A DNA stretch of 64,000 nt from Gemmatales bacterium (lineage in GTDB: Bacteria > Planctomycetota > Planctomycetia > Gemmatales > HRBIN36). Position 1 is the stretch's first letter. Each line of letters opens with the position of its first letter. Both the position numbers and the translations under genes were made by a program. Below the pieces are notes generated by a model. The model made no database searches and was not told the origin of the DNA. It saw only the letters and a list, made by a program, of their open reading frames with translations. The stretch lies in assembly GCA_025055835.1 (NCBI GenBank), contig JANWWR010000132.1, forward strand, positions 52,834-116,833, written 5' to 3'. Positions 10,693 to 23,173 of this stretch are shown piece by piece.

Positions 10693-11373
10693 TTACTTCA
10701 CGTTCCCTGCTTCCAAAGCCTCGGGATGGTGTCGAATGATTTCCCCACTGATCAGATACACGACGTCCTCCGCGATGTTCGTGGCGTGATCGGCAATGCG
10801 TTCCAACTGCCGGGAAACCGAGAAAAGGTTCAGTCCCGGCTCCACGTTCTCCGCGGATTTCTTCATGTACTTGATGACCTGGGCGATGATCTCGCGATTG
10901 TGCCGATCCACTTCGTCGTCGAGGCGACAGACGCGTTTGGCCAGTTCCAGGTCGAGTTTGACAAAAGCGTCGAGACTGTCGCCGACCATGCTGTTGGTCA
11001 AATCGGCCATGACCTGGAAGCCGCTGGGAATGGGCACGGGCGGCCCCTGATTGAGTTCGCTGACCCGCTCGGCAATGTTGCTGGCGAGGTCGGCCATGCG
11101 TTCCAGGTCGGTGTTGATCTTCAGGATGGCGGCGACGCGGCGAAGATCTCCGGCCACGGGCTGATGCAGAGCGAGAATCTTGAGGCACTCCTCTTCGATC
11201 AGCGTCTCTTCGAGGTCGATGGCAGCCTCACCTTCCATGAGCGATCGGGCCAGTTCCGCATCGCGCTCGAACAGGGCACGGATGGCCCGGCCGACGGCTT
11301 GTTCCACCGAGGAGGCCAGGGCCAGTATCCGCCGTTGCAAATGTTCGAGATCCCTCTGCAAATGGATGTTCAT
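10693..11373 (-). CDS. phoU: phosphate signalling complex protein PhoU
   Basis: 226 aa, two-repeat helical PhoU layout with E/DxxxD-type motifs (DDEVDRHN, ERIADHATNIAEDV). Sits in pstB-phoU context. Confidence 0.9.
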   Translation of the reverse strand: MNIHLQRDLEHLQRRILALASSVEQAVGRAIRALFERDAELARSLMEGEAAIDLEETLIEEECLKILALHQPVAGDLRRVAAILKINTDLERMADLASNIAERVSELNQGPPVPIPSGFQVMADLTNSMVGDSLDAFVKLDLELAKRVCRLDDEVDRHNREIIAQVIKYMKKSAENVEPGLNLFSVSRQLERIADHATNIAEDVVYLISGEIIRHHPEALEAGNVK

Positions 11374-11380
11374 GCCCTGC

Positions 11381-12208
11381 TCATCCGAATCGGCCGGTGA
11401 TGTAGTCTTCCGTGTGCTTCTTTTCCGGCCGGGTGAACAGCTTATCGGTCGGCCCGACCTCGATCAGCTGCCCTTGGTAGAAGAACGCGGTCACATCCGA
11501 GACGCGGGCCGCCTGCTGCATGTTGTGCGTGACTATGACGATGGTATAGGACGCCTTGAGCTCGAAAATCAAGTCCTCGATGGCCTGGGTGGACTTGGGG
11601 TCGAGGGCCGAGGCCGGTTCATCCATGAGCAGCACTTCGGGATCAGTGGCCAAGGCCCGAGCGATGCACAAACGCTGCTGCTGGCCGCCGGACAGCCGCA
11701 TGGCCGAGTCCCACAGCCGATCCTTGACCTCATCCCACAACGCCGCCCGCTTGAGGCAGCGCTGAACGATCTCCTCCAGATCGGCCCGGCGGTTGACGCC
11801 GGCGACGCGAGGGCCATAGGCGACATTTTCGAAGATGCTCTTGGGAAACGGGTTCGACTTCTGGAACACCATGCCGACCCGCTTGCGGAGCGTGACTACG
11901 TCCATGCTCGGGTCGTAGATTTCCTGGCCGTCCAGCAGCACCGAGCCGGTGTGGCGAACGCCGTCAATCATGTCATTCATCCGGTTGAGCGTTCGCAGGA
12001 AGGTGGACTTGCCGCACCCGGACGGACCGATCAGGGCGGTGACGCAGCGTTCGGGGATCGCCATGGTGATGTTGAACAGGGCCTGCGTCTTGCCGTACCA
12101 CAGGCACAGATCCCGGGTTTCCATCTTGGCGGCTCGACCGTCGAGCATCGGCAGCGGACGGCCCGAGGCCTGCCTTTCCACCATGATGTTCGCGAAGCCA
12201 ACCGACAC
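11381..12208 (-). CDS. pstB: phosphate ABC transporter ATP-binding protein PstB
   Basis: Walker [10 protein letters not shown], signature [14 protein letters not shown], Walker B LLMDEP, and the PstB-typical C-terminus YITGRFG. The start is uncertain (GTG 12208 after GAGGTG, or an internal ATG). Confidence 0.92.
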
Positions 12209-13846: not shown

Positions 13847-15772
13847 TCACTGATACTCGTAGCCGATGTGGAAGGCGATGCGGCCGTCGGGCAATCGGCG
13901 AATCTCGGTGATGTACACCGGCAAACCGCCTCCGCGCACCGAGGCGCTGGAGGGCGTCGTCAATGGCGTGAAGCTCGTGTTGGCCGGGCTGGGATAGGGC
14001 ACATGCTCCAATTGCACCCGCGGCCCGGCCGGTCCCTCGATGCCGTGGCTCTCCTCAAGAATCGGCCGGTTGTTCACGACCCGCCAGATGAGCAGACCGG
14101 CACCCGGCAGATCGCTGTCGAAGCCCTTTTTCTGCCGATTCTCCAACAGGAAATACTCGCTGCCGTCAGCCCGGGCCAGCACTTTGAAACATTCCTTGGG
14201 GGAATCCTCGATGGGAGCGAGGATGAGCTTTTGCCGCACCGTGGGATCGAGCACGGTCGGCTGAATCCACCCCAGTTGTTCCTTGGCCCAGGCGGACAGA
14301 TGCTGGGGCCGACCCGTGGTGTTGACGTTGGACAACAGGCACCACGGCCCCAGTCCTTCGGAACCGGGATTCTCCGTGCGGGCGGCCAGGTTCGGCAAGC
14401 CGAGCAGCAGGGCGAATTCCTTGACGCAACCGTTCAGCGTCAGCATCCGCTCGCCGCCTTCGTAGGTGAGCAGGTAGTTCCATCGCCGGTTGCTGCCGCG
14501 ATGGAGCAAACTGCCGACGTGCGGGTAGTACACCGCTCCCGGATTCGTGCGGACGCGGTCTCCGGCGTAGATGAAAAACAGGGCCTCGAAATCGTTGACG
14601 GCATCCCGGCCCTCGCGATCCAGGAGCTTGTCCAGGGCCTCGCTGGGCAAGGCGGAGCGGTTGCTGGTGCCCGAGCCTTGCGAATAGTCACCCCGCTTCC
14701 TGGACACCTGGACCCAGGGGAAGACTTTACCTTCGACGCGGAAGGCCCCGTAGGACTGCTCGTGGAAGAAATCATTGAGACTGCCGAAAACGGGCTGTCC
14801 GGTGGCATTGTCCTTGTCCCGATACTCGCCTTTGCTGAACAGGAGTTTTTCCCACTCTGCCAGGGGAATCTTGTCGTTGTGCTTGATGTCGTCGAACTCG
14901 ACGAGGATGACGGCGAGGCGCATCACGTCCTTGCGCCAAAGCGGAATCATCGGCGCGCCGGCCTCGGGCCGACCCGCTCCGAATCCGAAACCGGGCCGTC
15001 CTCCGCCTGCCGTGCCGCGATCCGCTGCCAGCGTCACCTTGATTTCTTCCTCCTTATCGCCGCGGCGTAGAGTAAGCGTGAGCACGTCCCCGGGACGACG
15101 GGAGGCGACGACGTCGCTGAGTTCCGAGGCGCGGGTCAGGTTCTCGCCGTTGATCTTGAGCACGACGTCGCCGGGCCGAATACCGGCGTTGGCGGCGGGC
15201 GAATCCGGCACGACGCGGGCCACGGCGGCACCTTCGCCTTCCCCGCGGGATTCTTCCAGTTGCAAGCCGATGAAGGTGCGCTCGCTGCTGAGCCGCATCG
15301 GTCGGCTCAGTGCCGTCAGGCGGGCCTTAAGTTCCCGGGTTTCATCCCCCCGGCGAATTCGCAGGGCAATCTCTTCGCCCGGTGCGTGGGAGAGCAGCGT
15401 TTCCCGCAGCGATTCCGACGAGGTGATCGCTTTGCCAGCGACTTCGAGAAGCCAATCGCCCACCTTGAGTCCGGCTTTCGCCGCGGGGGAATCGGGCTGA
15501 ATGGCGGCGACACGCGGCTTACCCTCAGCATCTCGTTCGACGTGGACACCGAGGTAGCCGACCAGTCCAGCCGTCCCAGGCCCTGCCAGGCTCTGCCGCG
15601 TGGCAATGGCATTCTCCACGGTGCGATAGCCGGACAGCTCTCCGCTTGCGGGGGTCTTGGCTGCTTCCTGGGGCTGCCCCACGACAGGCAGCGTGGCGAG
15701 GAAGAGTCCAGCCAGCAGGCAGCCGATATTGAGGCTGAAGAAGGGCCGAAGCGATACGAGTCTGCGAATCAC
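13847..15772 (-). CDS. M6-like metalloprotease paralog with two PDZ domains and a degenerate active site (HExxH replaced by KEFAL)
   Basis: Colinear with the downstream paralog, including shared blocks ENPGSEGLGPWC, LLIWRVVNNRPILEESHGIEGPAGPRV and GGGLPVYIT. At 14408-14422 the codons read AAG GAA TTC GCC CTG (KEFAL), where the paralog has HEFGH. Confidence 0.8.
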   Translation of the reverse strand: MIRRLVSLRPFFSLNIGCLLAGLFLATLPVVGQPQEAAKTPASGELSGYRTVENAIATRQSLAGPGTAGLVGYLGVHVERDAEGKPRVAAIQPDSPAAKAGLKVGDWLLEVAGKAITSSESLRETLLSHAPGEEIALRIRRGDETRELKARLTALSRPMRLSSERTFIGLQLEESRGEGEGAAVARVVPDSPAANAGIRPGDVVLKINGENLTRASELSDVVASRRPGDVLTLTLRRGDKEEEIKVTLAADRGTAGGGRPGFGFGAGRPEAGAPMIPLWRKDVMRLAVILVEFDDIKHNDKIPLAEWEKLLFSKGEYRDKDNATGQPVFGSLNDFFHEQSYGAFRVEGKVFPWVQVSRKRGDYSQGSGTSNRSALPSEALDKLLDREGRDAVNDFEALFFIYAGDRVRTNPGAVYYPHVGSLLHRGSNRRWNYLLTYEGGERMLTLNGCVKEFALLLGLPNLAARTENPGSEGLGPWCLLSNVNTTGRPQHLSAWAKEQLGWIQPTVLDPTVRQKLILAPIEDSPKECFKVLARADGSEYFLLENRQKKGFDSDLPGAGLLIWRVVNNRPILEESHGIEGPAGPRVQLEHVPYPSPANTSFTPLTTPSSASVRGGGLPVYITEIRRLPDGRIAFHIGYEYQ

Positions 15773-15827
15773 GGCGAATTCTCCTCACGAGTCATGGCCG
15801 GGCAACGGCCACCGGCTGTCCTCGGGG

Positions 15828-17741
15828 TCAGTGATATTCATAGCCGATGTGGAAGGTGATTCGGCCGTCGGAAAGTTTGCGGATGTTCGTAATGTACACG
15901 GGCAGACCGCCGCCAAGTTGCGAGCGGCTCGACGGCGTGGTGTAGGGCGTAAAGGCGTCGTTGGACGGGCTGGGGAACGGCACGGCGTTCTGGAACACCC
16001 GTGGCCCGGCAGGTCCCTCGATGCCGTGCGACTCCTCCAGGATCGGCCGATTGCCCACCACCCGCCAGATCAACAGCCCCTCCGCCGGCAGACTGGCGTC
16101 GAAGCCTTTGCGACGCCGGTTTTCGAGCAGGAAATACTCGCTGCCATCCCTGCGCACCAACACCTTGAAGCACTCTTCCGGGGAATCATTGATCGGGGCG
16201 AGGATCAGCTTTTGTTTGACCGTCGGATCAATGACGGCGGGCTTGATCCACTCGAGCTTTTCCTTGGCCCAGGCACAGAAATGCTGGGGCCGTCCGTTGC
16301 CCGCTTGATTCGACATGGCGCACCAGACGCTCAGTCCCTCGCTGCCCGGGTTCTCCGGCCGGGCATAGAGATCGGGCAGACCTAGCAAATGGCCGAACTC
16401 ATGGGCGAACACGCTGATGTTCGCCATCCGTTCGCCGCCCTCGGGACAGATGAAGTACGGCCAACGCTTGCCCTGATGGGACACGGAGGAACGGTGCGGC
16501 CAGTACAGGCTGCCGCGCGGCACGTTCATCCGACCGCCGGCGTAGATGAAGATCAAACCGTCGGTGTCCTTGAGAGCGTCCTTGCCGTCCCGTTCGTAGA
16601 GCTTGTCCAAGGCCTCCGTCAACAGGGCGAAGCGGTTCCCACCTTCGCCATACTCTGCCCGTTTCTTGCTGACTTCGATCGGCTCAAAGACTTTGCCGAC
16701 GACCTTGAGTTTGCCGTAGGACTGCTCGTGGTAGTAATCCGCCAGGCTGCCAAAGGCGGGCTGTCCCGTGGCGGTCTGTTTGTAGCTGTCCCGGCTGAAA
16801 AAGGCGTCTTCCCACGCCTTGGCCGTGATCTTTTCACTGCATTTGACGTCGGGATACTGGATCAAAATCACCCCCAGACGATAGGTGTCCCGCCTCCAGT
16901 AGCCGGGCTGACGGAAGTCGAAGCCGACTGGTCCTCCGGAACCGAATCCGCGGCGGCCGTCGCTTGGCTCCTCGGCTCCGAGCGTGATGCGATATTCGAC
17001 GGGCTTTTCGGCCAGGAGCAAAGTGAGAACGACGGAGTCGTTCGGTTTCCGTTCGCCGATCAGTTCCCGCAAGCGGGCGGCACTGGTGATCGGGTTGCCG
17101 TCGAACTTCAGCAGTACCTCGCCGGGCTTGAGCTTGGCCCGATCCGCGGCGGAATTGGGCACGACCTCGCGAATGACCACCCCTTCCCCCTGTTCCACGG
17201 GCTCCACCTGCACACCCAGAGATGCCCGCAGCGGCGTGGTCCGCATGGGACGACTGGGGCTGTCGAGCACAGCTTCGATTTCCTGCGGTTTGCCGTCGCG
17301 GAGGATGGTGAGCTTGACGGCGTCGCCGGGCCGCCTGCCCCGCAAAAGTTCACGAGCCTGTTCGGTGCTCATGACCGACTGGCCGTTGAACTGGGTCAGC
17401 ACGTCGCCTGGCCGAAGCCCTGCCCGCTGGGCCGGCGAATCGCTGGCCACCTCGTCAATGACCAGTTTGCCGCCCTCCTCGACCGCCAGGTGGATGCCAA
17501 GAAAGCCGGGCTTTTCGACGGCCTCGGCGGCAGGAGCGGCCCGACTGATCTGCGTCGTGATGCAATCCCGGACGGTGCGATACTCCGACAGGTCCGGTAG
17601 GGCTTCCGAAGAGTCGGCGGGTTTGTTCTCGGGAGCTTGACCCACGGCTTCCCAGGATCCGACCACGGCAAGTAGAAACGCCATTGCCACGGCGACAAAC
17701 GCTGCCGTCCAAATCTCGTGCCCTTCTCGCAGTTTCGTCAT
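15828..17741 (-). CDS. M6-family (immune inhibitor A-like) zinc metalloprotease with two PDZ domains
   Basis: HEFGHLLGLPDLY zinc motif (CAT GAG TTC GGC CAT at 16403-16389). Two PDZ-like segments (PAQRAGLRPGDVL, AADRAKLKPGEVL). The real start is ATG 17741 (MTKLREGHEIW plus a TM segment). The longer track ORF to 18176 overlaps ribH. Confidence 0.85.
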   Translation of the reverse strand: MTKLREGHEIWTAAFVAVAMAFLLAVVGSWEAVGQAPENKPADSSEALPDLSEYRTVRDCITTQISRAAPAAEAVEKPGFLGIHLAVEEGGKLVIDEVASDSPAQRAGLRPGDVLTQFNGQSVMSTEQARELLRGRRPGDAVKLTILRDGKPQEIEAVLDSPSRPMRTTPLRASLGVQVEPVEQGEGVVIREVVPNSAADRAKLKPGEVLLKFDGNPITSAARLRELIGERKPNDSVVLTLLLAEKPVEYRITLGAEEPSDGRRGFGSGGPVGFDFRQPGYWRRDTYRLGVILIQYPDVKCSEKITAKAWEDAFFSRDSYKQTATGQPAFGSLADYYHEQSYGKLKVVGKVFEPIEVSKKRAEYGEGGNRFALLTEALDKLYERDGKDALKDTDGLIFIYAGGRMNVPRGSLYWPHRSSVSHQGKRWPYFICPEGGERMANISVFAHEFGHLLGLPDLYARPENPGSEGLSVWCAMSNQAGNGRPQHFCAWAKEKLEWIKPAVIDPTVKQKLILAPINDSPEECFKVLVRRDGSEYFLLENRRRKGFDASLPAEGLLIWRVVGNRPILEESHGIEGPAGPRVFQNAVPFPSPSNDAFTPYTTPSSRSQLGGGLPVYITNIRKLSDGRITFHIGYEYH

Positions 17742-17909
17742 GGTCACCCTCGCTTTCCGGGGCGGTGGCCCGGCAGAAGGTTGTTTGGCTGTTTCTCTAA
17801 CACCGAAATCGCGGCTCCGTCTCGGCTGAAACCATTTAAGCACCCTGAACGGATCGGCTCCAGTCGCTATCTTTCCTGCGATCCGTCGAGTCCACGAGGA
17901 GATGTCGCC

Positions 17910-18404
17910 ATGCCGCGAGTTTTTGAAGGCCGGTCCGTCAGCAGCGGCGGACGCTTTGCCGTGGTCGCTTCCAAGTTCAACCGCGAGGTCACCGACCGCC
18001 TGGTGGACGGAGCCTTGTCCGCGTTGCGAGAGGGCGGCGTGACCGAGGGTGATGTGGATCTCGTCTGGGTTCCCGGAGCATTCGAGATTCCTCTGACGGC
18101 CCAGCGCCTGGCGGAGAGCGGCGAATATGTGGCGGTGATCTGCGTCGGAGCGGTCATCCGCGGCGAAACAGACCACTACGCCTACATCTGCGAGGCAGCG
18201 ACACTAGGAATCCTCGACGCCGGCATGTCCACCGGCGTTCCCGTGCTGTTCGGCGTGCTGACCTGTCCCACCGAAGAACTGGCCCTGGAGCGTGCCGGCG
18301 GCAAAGAAGGCAACAAGGGCCGGGATGCCGCTCTCGCCGCCCTGGAAATGGTCCAGCTGTTGCGGAAACTCGACGAGACACTGCCCCGTTGTCCGCTTTC
18401 CTGA
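17910..18404 (+). CDS. ribH: 6,7-dimethyl-8-ribityllumazine synthase
   Basis: MPRVFEGRSVSSGGRFAVVASKFNREVTDRLV...VPGAFEIP...AVIRGETDHY..., canonical RibH motifs. Start is ATG 17910. Confidence 0.92.
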   Translation: MPRVFEGRSVSSGGRFAVVASKFNREVTDRLVDGALSALREGGVTEGDVDLVWVPGAFEIPLTAQRLAESGEYVAVICVGAVIRGETDHYAYICEAATLGILDAGMSTGVPVLFGVLTCPTEELALERAGGKEGNKGRDAALAALEMVQLLRKLDETLPRCPLS

Positions 18405-18422: not shown

Positions 18423-21400
18423 TCACGGTCTGGCCCGGGTGCCGTGACCGTGCCGATCCTCGCCGTACACGGGGCTGTTCGGGTCTCCCTTGGCGATCAC
18501 ATACGCCAGCAGATCGAGAATCTCTTCCCGCGTCAGCTTGTCGAGCAGACCCTTGGGCATCAACGACGTCGGCGATTTCTTCCGCCCGGCAATGTCGCCT
18601 TTCTTGAGAATCAACGGCTGCGTCTTGAGCAGCGGGTTTTCGATGAGCTTGACCTCGTCCTTGGTTTCCTCCAGGATCAAGCCGGTCACGGTGCGTCCGT
18701 CCTCCGTCTCGAAGACATAGCTGGCGTACTTGTCGTCGATCTTCTCCGACGGTTCAAGAATGTGCTTGAGAACGTCGAGCGGCGTGTATTTGGGATCGAG
18801 CTTGGCGAGGTCCTGGCCGATCTCGACGCCGACGCCGCCCAGCTTGTGACAGGCCGAGCAACTGGCGACCGTGAACAGCTGCTTGCCGTTGCTGAAGGAT
18901 CGCCCCTGGGCGATCTGTTCGACAGCGGCGGCTAGTTCCTCCACCTTCCATTCCTTTCGCGGCCGAACGAATCTCAGCAACTCATCAGCCGGGGGAAGGG
19001 GATGCCGGGCGAGGTAAGCCTCGGCATCGAGCAGGTAGTCATCGAGGTCTTCCACGACGTACAGGGCACCGTACATCCGTCTCCAGTGGCCGGGATAGGT
19101 GCAGACGTAGGGGTACACTCCTGGCGCGCTCGGAGCCATGAAGCGAAGTCGTTCGACTTCGCGGGGCTGAAGCAATCGGCTGCTCAGGAGCACCTTGTCG
19201 GAGCGGGGCACGAAATGGCGAGCAAGGGCACCGGGTTCGGTGGCGGTGTTCTCGGCCAACGTGCCGACTTCCTCCAGAGAACCGGGCTTCAGAAGCACGA
19301 AGTTGTGCGGCATCAGGTCGTTGTTCTCGAAGACGATCTCGAACGGCTTGCCGGCCTGGACGGCGAGACGCTCCTTGTCGAAAAGCATCTGGTCGGGAAT
19401 GGTGCCCAGACGCAGCACGCGGACGCCGAGCTGGCCGATTTCCTTGCGGATGGAAAGAGCCTGTTCCCGCGGAAGCTGGGCGGAGAGAGCGTCAGCCAAT
19501 TGCAACGCATCGAGAACAGCCGGTTCGGTTCGTCGCTCGACCGGCACCGTGCGGACATAGGCGAGGAGAGAGTCGAGCAACGGTCGGACTTCCTCCTGCG
19601 GCCAATGGACGGAGGGGATGCGCAAGAGGGCCTGCATGGCGGCGTGACGGTCGAGATCGTCACGGACGCAGCGGGCCAGGGCCTTGAACGCGGCGGCTTC
19701 CTGTCCGCGGATGCTGGTCAGTGTCTGCATCGCCGCTTGCCGGACCTGGCTTTCGGAAGCTCCGCCAAGCTCCGGCGGCAGGCGATCCAGCAGCGCTTCG
19801 ATGCGCGGGTACAGGGCGATTCTGTGGGCGGGATCGCGGAACAGCGGCACAGCCAGAACGAAGTCCCGCAGCGCTGCGGGAGAGCGCAGGGCCAATTTCC
19901 AGGCAGGCTCGATGACACCGTCGGCAGCGGTCAGGGCGACGAAAGCAACCTGACGAGCCGTCGGCGTCGGGCCGGAGACAGCCAGGCGTTCTAAGTCTTC
20001 CCGGATGCCCGCAAGTTCGTTCATCGGCCTGGCGGTGAGGAGTCGGAGATAATCGAACAGCACGCTTTCCGAGGCTGGTTCATTCTTCTTTCCAACCGTC
20101 TGAAGCTGAATTGCTTCCAGGAGCAGTTGCAGTTCGGTCTTGCCTTCTGAACGGGACAGCACCCGCAGGGCTTCCTGGCGCACTTCGTCCCGGATGCCGG
20201 GCCGAAGCAGAATCTCGTGATAAACGCCGGGGGTACGTTTGAGCTTGAGCAAATCTTCCGTGCTGACGCTCTTGAGGAAATAGCGAGCGCCGGCAGGTGT
20301 CGTGAAGTGGATCGGACGGCCCTCCGCGATGGCTTTTTTGACGTAGGGATCCAAGGCCCGCATCGTCTCGCCGCGAACAAACTGGATGTACTTGTCGCTG
20401 GGCTGATCGTCGGCGATAAGCACGACTTCGAGAGCTTCGGGAACCTTGAAGAAGCTGGCGGCGCGGACCGCTTCGAGCCGGACGCGAGGATGCGGATCGG
20501 CGGCCAGACGCTTGAACAGTTCCAAACTGTCGGGCACCCGGTCCCGCCAGTAGCACAGCACCCGTGCCGCTGCCGCTCGGGCCCGGAAGTCCGGCGAGCT
20601 GAGCACTTGTTTGAGCAGACCGACGTTGCGGACGTTGTGGTTCTGATGCAGCCAGAGCGCTTCGAGAACGTGATGCTCGTAGTCCGGGTCGTTGCGGTCG
20701 AGATTGGCCAGCCACTTCTGACACGCGGCGATGACTTCCTCCGTGGGCCGGGAGCCGAGTTCGATCCGGGCACGATAGCGGACGCGGTCCTCCGGATGCT
20801 TCAGGAGGTCGAGCAGTTTCTCGATCGGTTCTCCGGCGATGGGCGGAGACTTGGACAGGGGTCGGCCTTCGTAGGTGATCCGATAAATGCGGCCATGTTC
20901 TCGATCCCGGCTCGGATCGCGGAGGTTGTGCTGCATGTGGCCAATGATCGGATTGTGCCAGTCGAGGAAGTAGATCGCTCCGTCTGGCCCGATCTTGATG
21001 TCCGACGGACGGAAGTTCGGATCGCTGGAATAAAGCAAGCGTTCCTCTTCTTTGCCAACGAAGCTGGCTCCGTCGTCCCGGATGCTGTACTGCAAGATGC
21101 CCTGGTAGCCGATCACGTTGGCGACGAGGAGATTGCCCTGCATTTCGTCGGGAAAGTGTCGGCTCGACAGAATCTCCATGCCGGGACAGGGCCGGGTCCA
21201 CTGCTGATACACCTGGGGCGGTCGGTTGTGCTTGTGCGGGAAGTCGAGGTGGCCTGAGAACAGGGCGGCATGGTAGGGCTGCGCCCCGGTGCCGTCCACG
21301 ACGATGTCCTGCCCCCAGCGGTCGAAGACGTGGCCATGCGGATTGGCAAAGGCGAAGGACACGTAGACCTCGAACTTGTGGGTCCGCGGCTCGTAGCGAA

Positions 21401-23039
21401 ACACGCCGGCGTCGGCACAGCGGACCGGCGGGCCGTAAGGCGTCTCGACCTGGGTACGGTGGAAGGTGCCTTCCTGGAAGTAGAGCGCTCCACCGGGATC
21501 GAAGACGAAACTGTTCGCGGTGTGGTGCGTGTCGGCGGAGTCGATCCCGTTCAAGACCCGGATGCGAACGTCGGCCTTGTCGTTGCCGTCGGTGTCCTTG
21601 AGAAACCACAGATCCGGGGCCTGAGCTACCAGAACGCCGCCGTTCCAGAACTCGAAGCCGGTCGGGTTATGCAGTCCGCCGGCGAAGGTCTTGCACACGT
21701 CGGCTTTGCCATCGCCATCGGTGTCTTCGAGGATGAGGAGCTTGTCATCCATGACGTCCTTCGGCTTCCAGTGCGGATAGCTGGGCCAGACGGCGACCCA
21801 GAGTCGGCCCTTGGTGTCGAAGGCCATCTGGACGGGATTGACGAGTTCTGGAAACTGCTTTTCGGAAGCGACGAGGTTCACCTTCAGCCCCTTGGCCACG
21901 GTCATGCGGCGGATCGCCTCTTCGCCGTCGAGGAAGAGATGCTTGCCGTTCGGTCCCGGCCCCGGCTTGTTGGTGATGACCGGAATGAACGGTGGGGTGT
22001 TGGAGTCGTCGGGGACGGGAGCGGGGGAGAGCGGCTTGGCAGGCTCTCCGGCGGCATGACGGGCCAGGGTCCAGACGATGCGGTCCCGATTGGCCGTCAT
22101 CACGTCAAGAATCTCCATCTCGCGCTGGGCCACTTCGCGGTTGGTCTGGCCATTGACGAACTTGAGGTCGGCCCGTCCGCCGTAGATCGAGTACCCGTCC
22201 GTGGTCCGGTAACGCTGAAACCAGTGAAAATTGCGGTCCTTGATGGCCGTCCGCAGCTGCTCGACGGCAGGGGCGGAGAAGTCCACCGACGGTGCGTCGG
22301 GGAACAAGGCCCGATCGATGATCCGGGCAACCTGGGCATTTCCATGTTCGTTGAGATGCACGCCGTTGATCGTCCACGGCTTGCCATCCTTGCCGTAGGC
22401 GGAGCGTGTCGGCGTGAAGAGATCGACGAAGATGATTCCCTTGGCCTTGGCGACCTCTGCCATGACCCGCGTGTAGAGTTCGAGGTTCTGATTGTTCTCG
22501 CTGCCGTCCGGCAGATTACGGTCCTTCAGGTCTTCATGGGCAATGGGCGAGAACAACACCAGCCGCGGTGGTGATTGGCCGTTGTATCGTTGCGATAACG
22601 TGTGATTGATGAATGCCTCCAAGTCCTTGCGAAACTTGTCGAGTCCCTCGGGACCGGCGAACGCCTCGTTGTATCCGAAGAAGGCCAGGATCACGTCCGT
22701 TCTGTTTTTGGTCAGCCATTGGTCCGGGCTGCCAAAGCCATCGCAGCGCAGCCGCATCGTCAATTCGTCGCCGGAAAAGCCGAGATGGCGGATGGTCAGA
22801 TCATGGTCCGGCAGTCGGAGGTGAAGCAACGTGTCGAGATAGCCGTCGTGCTGCATCCGGTCGGCCAGGGTGTTGCCGAGGATGCTGACGTGCCCGTTCT
22901 TGGGGAAGATCGCCCTGGCACTGTCCTCCGGCTGGCCTGCGGCTTGGGCAAGCAGGAACCAACCCGGCAGGACAAAAAACAGACTCCCCAACGGAAATAC
23001 TCCCTGACGAAGCGATCTGGCTGCGAACAGTTCGGTCAT
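18423..23039 (-). CDS. giant PVC-type heme-binding multidomain protein (SGNH-like hydrolase + beta-propeller dehydrogenase-like domain + HEAT repeats + azurin-like cupredoxin + cytochrome c)
   Basis: About 1538 aa. N-terminal signal/TM, then an SGNH-like region (ILGNTLADRM ... GVHLNEHGN). A propeller region follows (DGDGKADV, DTDGNDKADV). HEAT-like repeats come next (HPEDRVRYRARIELG, HPRVRLEAVRA). The azurin-type copper site is MPHNFVLL ... YVCTYPGHWRRMYGALYV. A C-terminal c-type heme motif CSACHKLGG closes the protein. ATG 23039 follows AAGAGG. Confidence 0.85.
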   Translation of the reverse strand: MTELFAARSLRQGVFPLGSLFFVLPGWFLLAQAAGQPEDSARAIFPKNGHVSILGNTLADRMQHDGYLDTLLHLRLPDHDLTIRHLGFSGDELTMRLRCDGFGSPDQWLTKNRTDVILAFFGYNEAFAGPEGLDKFRKDLEAFINHTLSQRYNGQSPPRLVLFSPIAHEDLKDRNLPDGSENNQNLELYTRVMAEVAKAKGIIFVDLFTPTRSAYGKDGKPWTINGVHLNEHGNAQVARIIDRALFPDAPSVDFSAPAVEQLRTAIKDRNFHWFQRYRTTDGYSIYGGRADLKFVNGQTNREVAQREMEILDVMTANRDRIVWTLARHAAGEPAKPLSPAPVPDDSNTPPFIPVITNKPGPGPNGKHLFLDGEEAIRRMTVAKGLKVNLVASEKQFPELVNPVQMAFDTKGRLWVAVWPSYPHWKPKDVMDDKLLILEDTDGDGKADVCKTFAGGLHNPTGFEFWNGGVLVAQAPDLWFLKDTDGNDKADVRIRVLNGIDSADTHHTANSFVFDPGGALYFQEGTFHRTQVETPYGPPVRCADAGVFRYEPRTHKFEVYVSFAFANPHGHVFDRWGQDIVVDGTGAQPYHAALFSGHLDFPHKHNRPPQVYQQWTRPCPGMEILSSRHFPDEMQGNLLVANVIGYQGILQYSIRDDGASFVGKEEERLLYSSDPNFRPSDIKIGPDGAIYFLDWHNPIIGHMQHNLRDPSRDREHGRIYRITYEGRPLSKSPPIAGEPIEKLLDLLKHPEDRVRYRARIELGSRPTEEVIAACQKWLANLDRNDPDYEHHVLEALWLHQNHNVRNVGLLKQVLSSPDFRARAAAARVLCYWRDRVPDSLELFKRLAADPHPRVRLEAVRAASFFKVPEALEVVLIADDQPSDKYIQFVRGETMRALDPYVKKAIAEGRPIHFTTPAGARYFLKSVSTEDLLKLKRTPGVYHEILLRPGIRDEVRQEALRVLSRSEGKTELQLLLEAIQLQTVGKKNEPASESVLFDYLRLLTARPMNELAGIREDLERLAVSGPTPTARQVAFVALTAADGVIEPAWKLALRSPAALRDFVLAVPLFRDPAHRIALYPRIEALLDRLPPELGGASESQVRQAAMQTLTSIRGQEAAAFKALARCVRDDLDRHAAMQALLRIPSVHWPQEEVRPLLDSLLAYVRTVPVERRTEPAVLDALQLADALSAQLPREQALSIRKEIGQLGVRVLRLGTIPDQMLFDKERLAVQAGKPFEIVFENNDLMPHNFVLLKPGSLEEVGTLAENTATEPGALARHFVPRSDKVLLSSRLLQPREVERLRFMAPSAPGVYPYVCTYPGHWRRMYGALYVVEDLDDYLLDAEAYLARHPLPPADELLRFVRPRKEWKVEELAAAVEQIAQGRSFSNGKQLFTVASCSACHKLGGVGVEIGQDLAKLDPKYTPLDVLKHILEPSEKIDDKYASYVFETEDGRTVTGLILEETKDEVKLIENPLLKTQPLILKKGDIAGRKKSPTSLMPKGLLDKLTREEILDLLAYVIAKGDPNSPVYGEDRHGHGTRARP

Positions 23040-23173
23040 ACGGTTCAACCTCTTGGAGGGCGGTCATTGCGGCGGAAGGACGAGGCCCCAGGTCGGCCCC
23101 GTTTTCGCGGATGTCATGCTGGTAGTATAGGGCCGGTCAGGGCCACGCTGAAAGGGCTTTCTGCGGGCAAAGT

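Follow-up and report, generated by a model that had tools for sequence, protein, structure and literature searches.

A conserved PDZ-M6 paralogue with a degenerate zinc site is encoded directly behind its active-type counterpart in a Gemmatales bacterium

In a stretch of 64,000 nucleotides from a Gemmatales bacterium (assembly GCA_025055835.1, contig JANWWR010000132.1, positions 52,834 to 116,833; the whole stretch is called the window and is numbered from its first letter) two adjacent genes on the reverse strand encode proteins composed of two PDZ domains and an M6-type metalloprotease domain. Gene B (15828..17741, 637 residues), upstream in the pair, is an active-type PDZ-PDZ-M6 metalloprotease gene. 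Gene A (13847..15772, 641 residues), downstream in the pair, encodes a paralogue that lacks all three zinc ligands. The product of gene A is almost certainly dead as a zincin and maintained by selection as such. With moderate confidence we read it as a pseudopeptidase: gene B would encode the secreted zinc protease, and gene A its conserved, dead paralogue, functionally coupled to it.

Results

The zinc site of gene A is degenerate

Gene B contains the M6 zinc motif HExxHxxGxxD, the downstream tyrosine and the methionine of the Met-turn (HEFGHLLGLPDLY and WCAMS). The intact motif HEFGHLLGLPDLYAR maps to 16359..16403 on the reverse strand (His447, Glu448, His451, Asp457 and Tyr459), with HEFGH at 16389-16403, and in the form HExxHxxGLPDxY it aligns with InhA (4YU5) and snapalysin. 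At the aligned position (14378..14422, reverse strand) gene A reads KEFALLLGLPNLAAR, with KEFAL at 14408-14422: the first histidine is replaced by lysine and the second by leucine, the glutamate is kept, the third zinc ligand is changed from aspartate to asparagine (14390-14392) and the tyrosine two residues on is alanine. The Met-turn reads WCAMS in gene B and WCLLS in gene A, where residues 477-479 (W-C-L; 14336..14344, reverse strand) are followed in the next codon by Leu480 in place of the methionine. Gene A therefore lacks the motif that defines M6 (KEFALLLGLPNLA, WCLLS): none of His, His, Asp, Tyr and Met is present and, of the catalytic set, the glutamate alone is retained. In M6 and M7 enzymes the aspartate is the third zinc ligand, and the tyrosine two residues on forms a 'tyrosine switch' that stabilises reaction intermediates (PMC12237041). 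Judged by these residues, the gene A product cannot bind zinc in the M6 manner. It is an M6 homologue by fold and sequence and, as the defining zinc motif is missing, should not be classed among the peptidases.

The two proteins are 51% identical across 617 residues (PDZ1 35%, PDZ2 39%, M6 domain 63%). An earlier note on this DNA had described two adjacent same-strand open reading frames (ORFs) of 641 and 637 residues with one common layout, consisting of a signal-like N-terminus, two PDZ domains and an M6 domain, and had listed ENPGSEGL, LLIWRVV.NRPILEESHGIEGPAGPRV and GGGLPVYIT as near-identical blocks. Both frames lie exactly where the note placed them, the layout is the same in both proteins and all three blocks appear in our alignment of A and B; its positions for HEFGH and KEFAL are exact as well. 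The loss that it reported, of both zinc-ligand histidines in gene A, goes further than it had claimed, in that the third ligand, the tyrosine and the Met-turn methionine are also gone.

Active and degenerate homologues form two separate clades

A homologue search gave 290 proteins at E ≤1e-20. The best 120 matches, gene A among them, were aligned together with gene B, and of these 121 sequences 49 have the full active motif, invariant in 49/49, and 72 a degenerate one. In a neighbour-joining tree the two groups are cleanly separate clades. The degenerate clade is described by the motif [KR][EPQ]xx[variable]xxGLP[DNSE]LAAR. At the position of the first histidine its 72 members have Lys (52), Arg (19) or Ala (1), and at the glutamate position Glu (59), Pro (12) or Gln (1). 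Histidine is never found at the second histidine position, which is occupied by Leu (19), Gln (19), Arg (12), Tyr (7), Phe (6) and others. The aspartate position holds Asp (53), Glu (8), Asn (6) or Ser (5), the tyrosine position is Ala in 69 sequences, and the Met-turn position is Met in 43 and Leu in 29, compared to Met in 49/49 of the active clade.

Of the columns with a conservation of 90% or more in the active clade, just nine shift systematically in the degenerate clade; among them are Trp414 to Tyr and Arg417 to Ala, both in the YWPHR strand. Since five of the nine fall in or beside the zinc motif, the changes at the zinc site are not due to chance. Elsewhere the consensus sequences of the two clades are nearly identical, including the peptide-binding loops of the PDZ domains.

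A search of 50%-identity cluster representatives gave 1125 matches at E ≤1e-30. Single-PDZ versions of about 530 residues are of the active type (P0128, HEFGH) or degenerate (P0122, KPACL...; P0129, NLLGR...), and the split into active and dead forms therefore also exists in the shorter architecture. P0096, a metagenome protein from a 4.3-kb contig, carries the motif AEFGKLLGLPELFAR (AEFGK...ELFAR). It is equidistant from the active and degenerate clades, keeps the active-type residues Arg417, Ser443, Pro462 and Met476, and is encoded at the contig edge, so that its upstream neighbour lies beyond the contig; it could represent either a basal member or a later inactivation that arose independently. 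Repeated independent inactivation was otherwise rejected, as the degenerate sequences form one clade and P0096 alone is ambiguous.

The dead copy is under purifying selection

Ratios of nonsynonymous to synonymous substitution rates (dN/dS) were calculated by the Nei-Gojobori method against three close relatives that carry both genes (loci L001, L084 and L085). Their gene A orthologues are 89%, 85% and 72% identical to gene A, respectively, and both histidines are missing in each of them. As dS lies between 0.5 and 1.2 in these comparisons, most weight should be given to the closest pairs. For gene A as a whole dN/dS is 0.11-0.19. In four comparisons of the dead M6 domain it is 0.057, 0.078, 0.125 and 0.138, with bootstrap upper limits ≤0.19, and for the catalytic domain of gene B it is 0.015-0.085. 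The reading frame of gene A is intact in all 14 related loci with DNA.

Over one common set of 11 genomes, the divergence of the dead domain is 1.39 times that of the active domain, and the PDZ regions of the two paralogues diverge to the same extent (ratio 0.95). In gene A itself the mean distance is 0.49 in the M6-like domain and 0.95 in the PDZ region, i.e. the former is about twice as conserved. Of all parts of gene A, the dead M6 domain is thus the best conserved, which argues that the domain itself is kept by selection.

These data bear on the central proposal of the earlier note, a duplicated protease with one conserved dead copy, which holds as far as sequence can show. The note had wondered whether orthologues retain HExxH: all 72 clade members, L001, L084 and L085 included, are without both histidines. 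It had also considered neutral evolution or disruption of the copy in relatives, where we find intact frames and the low ratios given above. A strain-specific mutation or sequencing error is ruled out, as close and distant orthologues share the same type of degenerate motif. Its further suggestion, a role exerted through the retained PDZ domains, stands in part: the domains are retained, but a PDZ route is not specifically supported, as they are the fastest-evolving region and evolve at an equal rate in the two paralogues.

The degenerate gene follows an active gene

To place the pair in related genomes we scanned species-representative genomes, which yielded 498 relatives, and inspected the best 80. 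Among these, 8 loci carry the pair, with the degenerate gene behind the active one and on the same strand. One further degenerate gene was found on a contig of only 1.8 kb, too short for its surroundings to be assessed, and at 70 loci there is a single active gene. For 8 further degenerate proteins, encoded on metagenome contigs, a PDZ-M6 gene is found directly upstream in 8/8. Taken together, the active copy lies directly upstream on the same strand in the window and in 16/16 other informative loci. The upstream copy has the full HEFGH...GLPDLY motif wherever DNA could be read, and the gap between the paired genes ranges from -4 to about 85 nucleotides (12 related loci). The genes flanking the pair are otherwise unrelated between loci, and beyond the pair no conserved neighbourhood was found at these loci except among close relatives. 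The closest relatives keep ribH upstream, and L084, for which downstream sequence is available, also keeps a gene for a BamB-like beta-propeller downstream.

Two features of individual records should be mentioned. At L082 (2558-3931) and L083 (2892-3984) the upstream active gene is called short (457 and 233 residues) and the tblastn pieces lie in different frames; these shortened frames are probably assembly frameshifts in long-read metagenomes and not true truncations. Several genome contigs, among them those of L020, L046, L050 and L037, bear record titles (Alcaligenaceae, Klebsiella, Akkermansia muciniphila and Bifidobacteriaceae) that are implausible for a gene of the Planctomycetota/Verrucomicrobiota type, and the labels of such metagenome-assembled genomes (MAGs) are probably wrong.

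Members of the parent PDZ-PDZ-M6 family occur widely in Planctomycetota, Verrucomicrobiota and Armatimonadota. The pair is hosted by Gemmataceae, Gemmatales and Isosphaeraceae MAGs, and at the loci inspected a single active gene only is present in Verrucomicrobiota, Armatimonadota, Phycisphaerae, Pirellulales, cultured Zavarzinella, Gemmata sp. and Chthoniobacter. Rooted with an outgroup, the tree places all degenerate sequences in one monophyletic clade, nested inside the active sequences of Planctomycetota. Active copies that have a partner group in a clade of their own in Gemmatales, with a branching that mirrors that of their degenerate partners, and the distance between active and dead copy within a genome exceeds the between-genome distances within each type. 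The simplest reading of these trees would be one old duplication within Planctomycetota, in the Gemmatales/Isosphaeraceae lineage, with subsequent co-inheritance of both copies and no gene conversion.

Domain architecture, gene starts and modelled fold

The mechanical ORF of gene B reaches 18176, an extension that runs antisense through ribH (17910-18404, forward strand) and is an artefact. The ATG at 17741 is a credible start, as it is preceded by GAGGG, opens a signal-peptide-like N-terminus and gives a length as in the homologues (600-640 residues). Gene A starts with GTG at 15772, 55 nucleotides past the stop of gene B. The intergenic spacer (15773..15827, reverse strand) contains GAGGAG (15781-15786) 8 nucleotides ahead of this GTG, and a scan of the spacer found no terminator-like site between the two genes. 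The GC content at third codon positions is 0.78 in both genes, and the codon-position GC of gene A is as in the neighbouring genes. No third copy of the PDZ-M6 gene is present in the window.

Both proteins begin with basic and then hydrophobic residues. In gene B this signal-peptide-like segment (approximately residues 1-34; 17640..17741, reverse strand) comprises basic residues followed by a 15-residue window with a mean hydropathy of 2.85. No further membrane-like segment was found in either protein, and both products are predicted to be exported. A lipoprotein signal at the cysteine of the gene A N-terminus was rejected, as this residue lies within the hydrophobic core and is not conserved.

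The tandem PDZ of gene B spans 16980..17513 on the reverse strand (PDZ1 17262-17513, PDZ2 16980-17234); PF13180, PF17820 and PF00595 match two stretches each, and sequence matches are found to the PDZ domains of DegQ, DegP and RseP. In the tandem PDZ of gene A (15023..15565, reverse strand; PDZ1 15308-15565, PDZ2 15023-15280) the peptide-binding loops GYLGV and LG are kept. The thuringilysin-type catalytic domain of gene B (15831..16901, reverse strand) matches TIGR03296 over residues 291-560 with 154.1 bits (cutoff 110.8) and PF05547 with 52.8 (cutoff 22), and phmmer detects InhA 4yu5 at E 1e-4 and snapalysin across the zinc motif. Its model scores and motif make gene B a typical M6 member, which encodes a putative peptidase. 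The M6-like pseudo-catalytic domain of gene A (13850..14941, reverse strand) scores 105.8 with TIGR03296, just under the cutoff, though the full model length (1-286) is covered; PF05547 reaches 26.7 against the cutoff of 22, with the N-terminal part only.

An AlphaFold model of full-length gene A has a mean predicted local distance difference test score (pLDDT) of 86.9 and a predicted template modelling score (pTM) of 0.78. Its PDZ domains are modelled with pLDDT >90 and match those of DegP, DegQ and RseP, and the remainder matches InhA2 of Bacillus anthracis. The M6-like domain modelled alone reaches pLDDT 94 and pTM 0.92, and its only significant matches in the PDB are InhA2 entries 4YU6 and 4YU5 (E 5e-11, template modelling (TM) score 0.67-0.71), with fragilysin far below. 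The modelled domain is thus InhA-like, and gene A can be confidently predicted to retain the InhA2-like fold. The near-invariant Lys/Arg probably fills the former metal site, paired with the retained Glu and Asp.

Discussion

A proposed non-catalytic accessory of the active protease

A duplication in Planctomycetota was followed by loss of the zinc site in one copy, whose first histidine was replaced by Lys or Arg, the second by almost any residue and the tyrosine by Ala. Asp, Glu and Met have often been lost too, whereas this copy retains the InhA2-like fold in its other parts, the two PDZ domains and an export signal. The dead copy has since remained next to the active gene, on its downstream side, under purifying selection. 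The products of genes A and B, which may be co-transcribed, would share a compartment, where gene A could act as a non-catalytic accessory of gene B. Most likely it would bind the same kind of polypeptide via its intact but inert cleft and its PDZ domains, and may thereby recruit, hold or gate substrates for the active enzyme.

It is the strict adjacency of the genes that points to a partner or regulatory role of gene A, and we regard functional coupling of gene A to gene B as rather likely. A stable physical complex of the two products is a tentative extension of this idea, towards which we lean slightly less than against it.

Several observations weigh against such a coupling. In 59 of the 70 single-gene loci at least 2.5 kb of downstream sequence is available and the second copy is absent. 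Promoter and terminator scans were uninformative, so that co-transcription rests on the spacing of the two genes. The mirror-tree correlation (r 0.54 for the catalytic domain and 0.77 for the PDZ region) is expected from shared ancestry alone. Finally, when partnered active copies (n=14) are compared to single active ones (n=57), there is one systematic column, a conservative Asp to Glu exchange in PDZ2. The partnered active copy is thus essentially unchanged, and the active enzyme shows no sign of adaptation to, or dependence on, its partner. As the active copy is also alone in most lineages, an obligate dependence on the dead copy, and with it an obligate heteromer of the type known from M16B peptidases, is unlikely.

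The column in question is residue 208 of gene B (approximately 17118-17120), which is Glu in 13/14 partnered and Asp in 56/57 single active copies; the dead partners have Asp in 12/14. It could be a lineage marker or reflect a small co-adaptation.

Alternative explanations

The main rival is a stand-alone, non-catalytic binder, i.e. a substrate trap, a holdase or a competitor that shields targets from gene B, linked to it by a shared pathway and operon with no complex being formed. Such a protein would be expected to keep its cleft-forming residues and PDZ loops and to lose its catalytic residues, as found for gene A, and to leave the active enzyme unaltered, as in the comparison with single-copy active proteins. 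The low identity between the PDZ domains of the paralogues (just 35-39%) also means that their ligands may differ. However, adjacency in 16/16 loci with very short or overlapping gaps, preserved over deep divergence, is more typical of stoichiometric co-action, and we consider the stand-alone binder possible but doubtful.

In a stronger form of the coupling that we prefer, the two products would together make up a genuinely heteromeric protease of the metzincin type, confined to one planctomycete lineage. Here the conserved Lys/Arg would plug the metal site of the dead subunit, whose intact cleft and divergent PDZ domains would bind substrates or detect unfolded C-termini and in this way gate the active subunit allosterically. 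No heteromeric M6 enzyme would precede it, and bacteria of the Planctomycetota-Verrucomicrobiota group would possess a novel type of machine for quality control or processing in the envelope. We think it improbable.

Residual catalysis by gene A with another metal site or another chemistry, for example at the EESHG block or through the retained glutamate, is very unlikely. Glu448 is kept in 59/72 degenerate sequences, Lys/Arg is nearly invariant at the first histidine position and His576 of the EESHG block is invariant. Yet this block is equally invariant in the active clade and thus represents a shared structural feature, which led us to reject it as an alternative active site. Moreover, the glutamate is replaced by Pro or Gln in 13/72 sequences, the second histidine position is hypervariable, and no residues other than Tyr416 and Ala463 are conserved in the degenerate clade alone.

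Decay of gene A into a pseudogene, a mutation confined to one strain or a fault of the assembly, to which the TIGR03296 score just under its cutoff might have pointed, is refuted by the recurrence of one type of degenerate motif in 72 independent sequences drawn from many metagenomes, intact frames in 14/14 related loci, dN/dS ≤0.19, normal codon-position GC and a high-confidence model.

Comparison with known systems

Among the closest known systems is InhA/thuringilysin (MEROPS M6; InhA2, PDB 4YU5/4YU6). Gene B resembles it in passing the M6 models and in its HExxHxxGLPDxY motif, and the modelled domain of gene A matches InhA2 alone significantly, although the sequence identity of this domain is only about 13%. 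Unlike InhA, which has a propeptide and C-terminal domains, the proteins described here have a signal peptide and two DegP-like PDZ domains, and gene A has none of the three zinc ligands.

Bacterial M16B peptidases provide the closest precedent for the arrangement. They are encoded by two-gene operons for an active and an inactive subunit, the inactive one supplying substrate binding as in the alpha and beta subunits of the mitochondrial processing peptidase (PMC11266112). As in M16B and the mitochondrial enzyme, an active gene and its zinc-less paralogue are adjacent and co-oriented here. In contrast, clan and fold are unrelated (an inverted HxxEH clamshell in M16B, metzincin-like HExxHxxGxxD in our pair), and no M16 model or structure was among the profile, sequence and fold matches of the pair. 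The heterodimer is proven for M16B, while our pair is known from its genes; in most lineages the active copy of the latter also exists by itself, and copies that have a partner are unaltered.

NCBIfam already lists one M6-like domain whose site is inactivated, NF052323, 'T9SS-dependent M6-like inactivated metalloprotease', so that the idea of an inactivated M6 homologue is not in itself new. The match is weak and local: gene A scores 29.1 and gene B 23.3 bits, with a cutoff of 600, and gene A thus falls outside this family. NF052323 proteins also differ in length (about 1043 positions), in their dependence on the type IX secretion system (T9SS), in the lack of PDZ domains and in their host phylum. 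A distant M6-domain protein from the representative library, P0193 (753 residues, 30% identity), has REIVRGLGATDH in place of the zinc motif. Together with NF052323 it suggests repeated inactivation across the wider M6 superfamily.

The tandem PDZ domains of the pair are closest, in sequence and in the modelled structure, to those of the HtrA-type proteases DegP and DegQ and of RseP. This likeness suggests recognition of peptide C-termini and a role in quality control or processing of exported proteins. The protease domain differs, however, being a zinc M6 fold and neither an S1 serine protease nor an S2P intramembrane protease.

A 2024 review of pseudo-metallopeptidases has no M6 entry, and our literature searches for PDZ-M6 proteases, M6 in Planctomycetes and inactivated M6 proteins found nothing. 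A paired pseudopeptidase under selection is a known kind of arrangement, undescribed for this pair, and will not surprise a specialist. With it M6 (thuringilysin) would join the metallopeptidase families that have a selected, paired pseudo-enzyme. The related lineages provide a natural experiment, in which the same active enzyme occurs with and without a dead partner. There is also a consequence for annotation: gene A, encoded on a 118-kb MAG contig, is recorded at NCBI as 'PDZ domain-containing protein [Gemmatales bacterium]', and the names now in use, this one or 'M6 family metalloprotease-like protein', hide that one whole clade cannot be a protease.

Genomic surroundings of the pair

Upstream of the pair, ribH (lumazine synthase, PF00885) is divergent from gene B over a spacer of 168 bp (17742-17909), an arrangement that is kept in L084 and L085 and is not found in distant relatives. 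On its far side a 1541-residue multidomain protein is encoded at 18423-23048 on the reverse strand; it combines GDSL lipase-like, DUF7133, HEAT-repeat and cupredoxin-like parts with a C-terminal cytochrome c, and is of the large heme/copper 'dehydrogenase-like' type common in Planctomycetota. Downstream, the gene for a BamB-like pyrroloquinoline quinone (PQQ) beta-propeller protein (12448/12589-13836, forward strand) is convergent with gene A, the two stops being 10 nucleotides apart (13836 and 13847), and the same neighbour is present in L084. It is followed at 10693-12208 on the reverse strand by pstB (ATP-binding cassette ATPase) and then phoU, part of a phosphate-uptake operon. PADLOC gave no matches that would link the region to anti-phage defence, and neither tRNA genes nor Rfam families at gathering score were detected across the 64-kb window (1-64000). 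As expected at 62% GC, the window contains many long 'shadow' ORFs opposite real genes.

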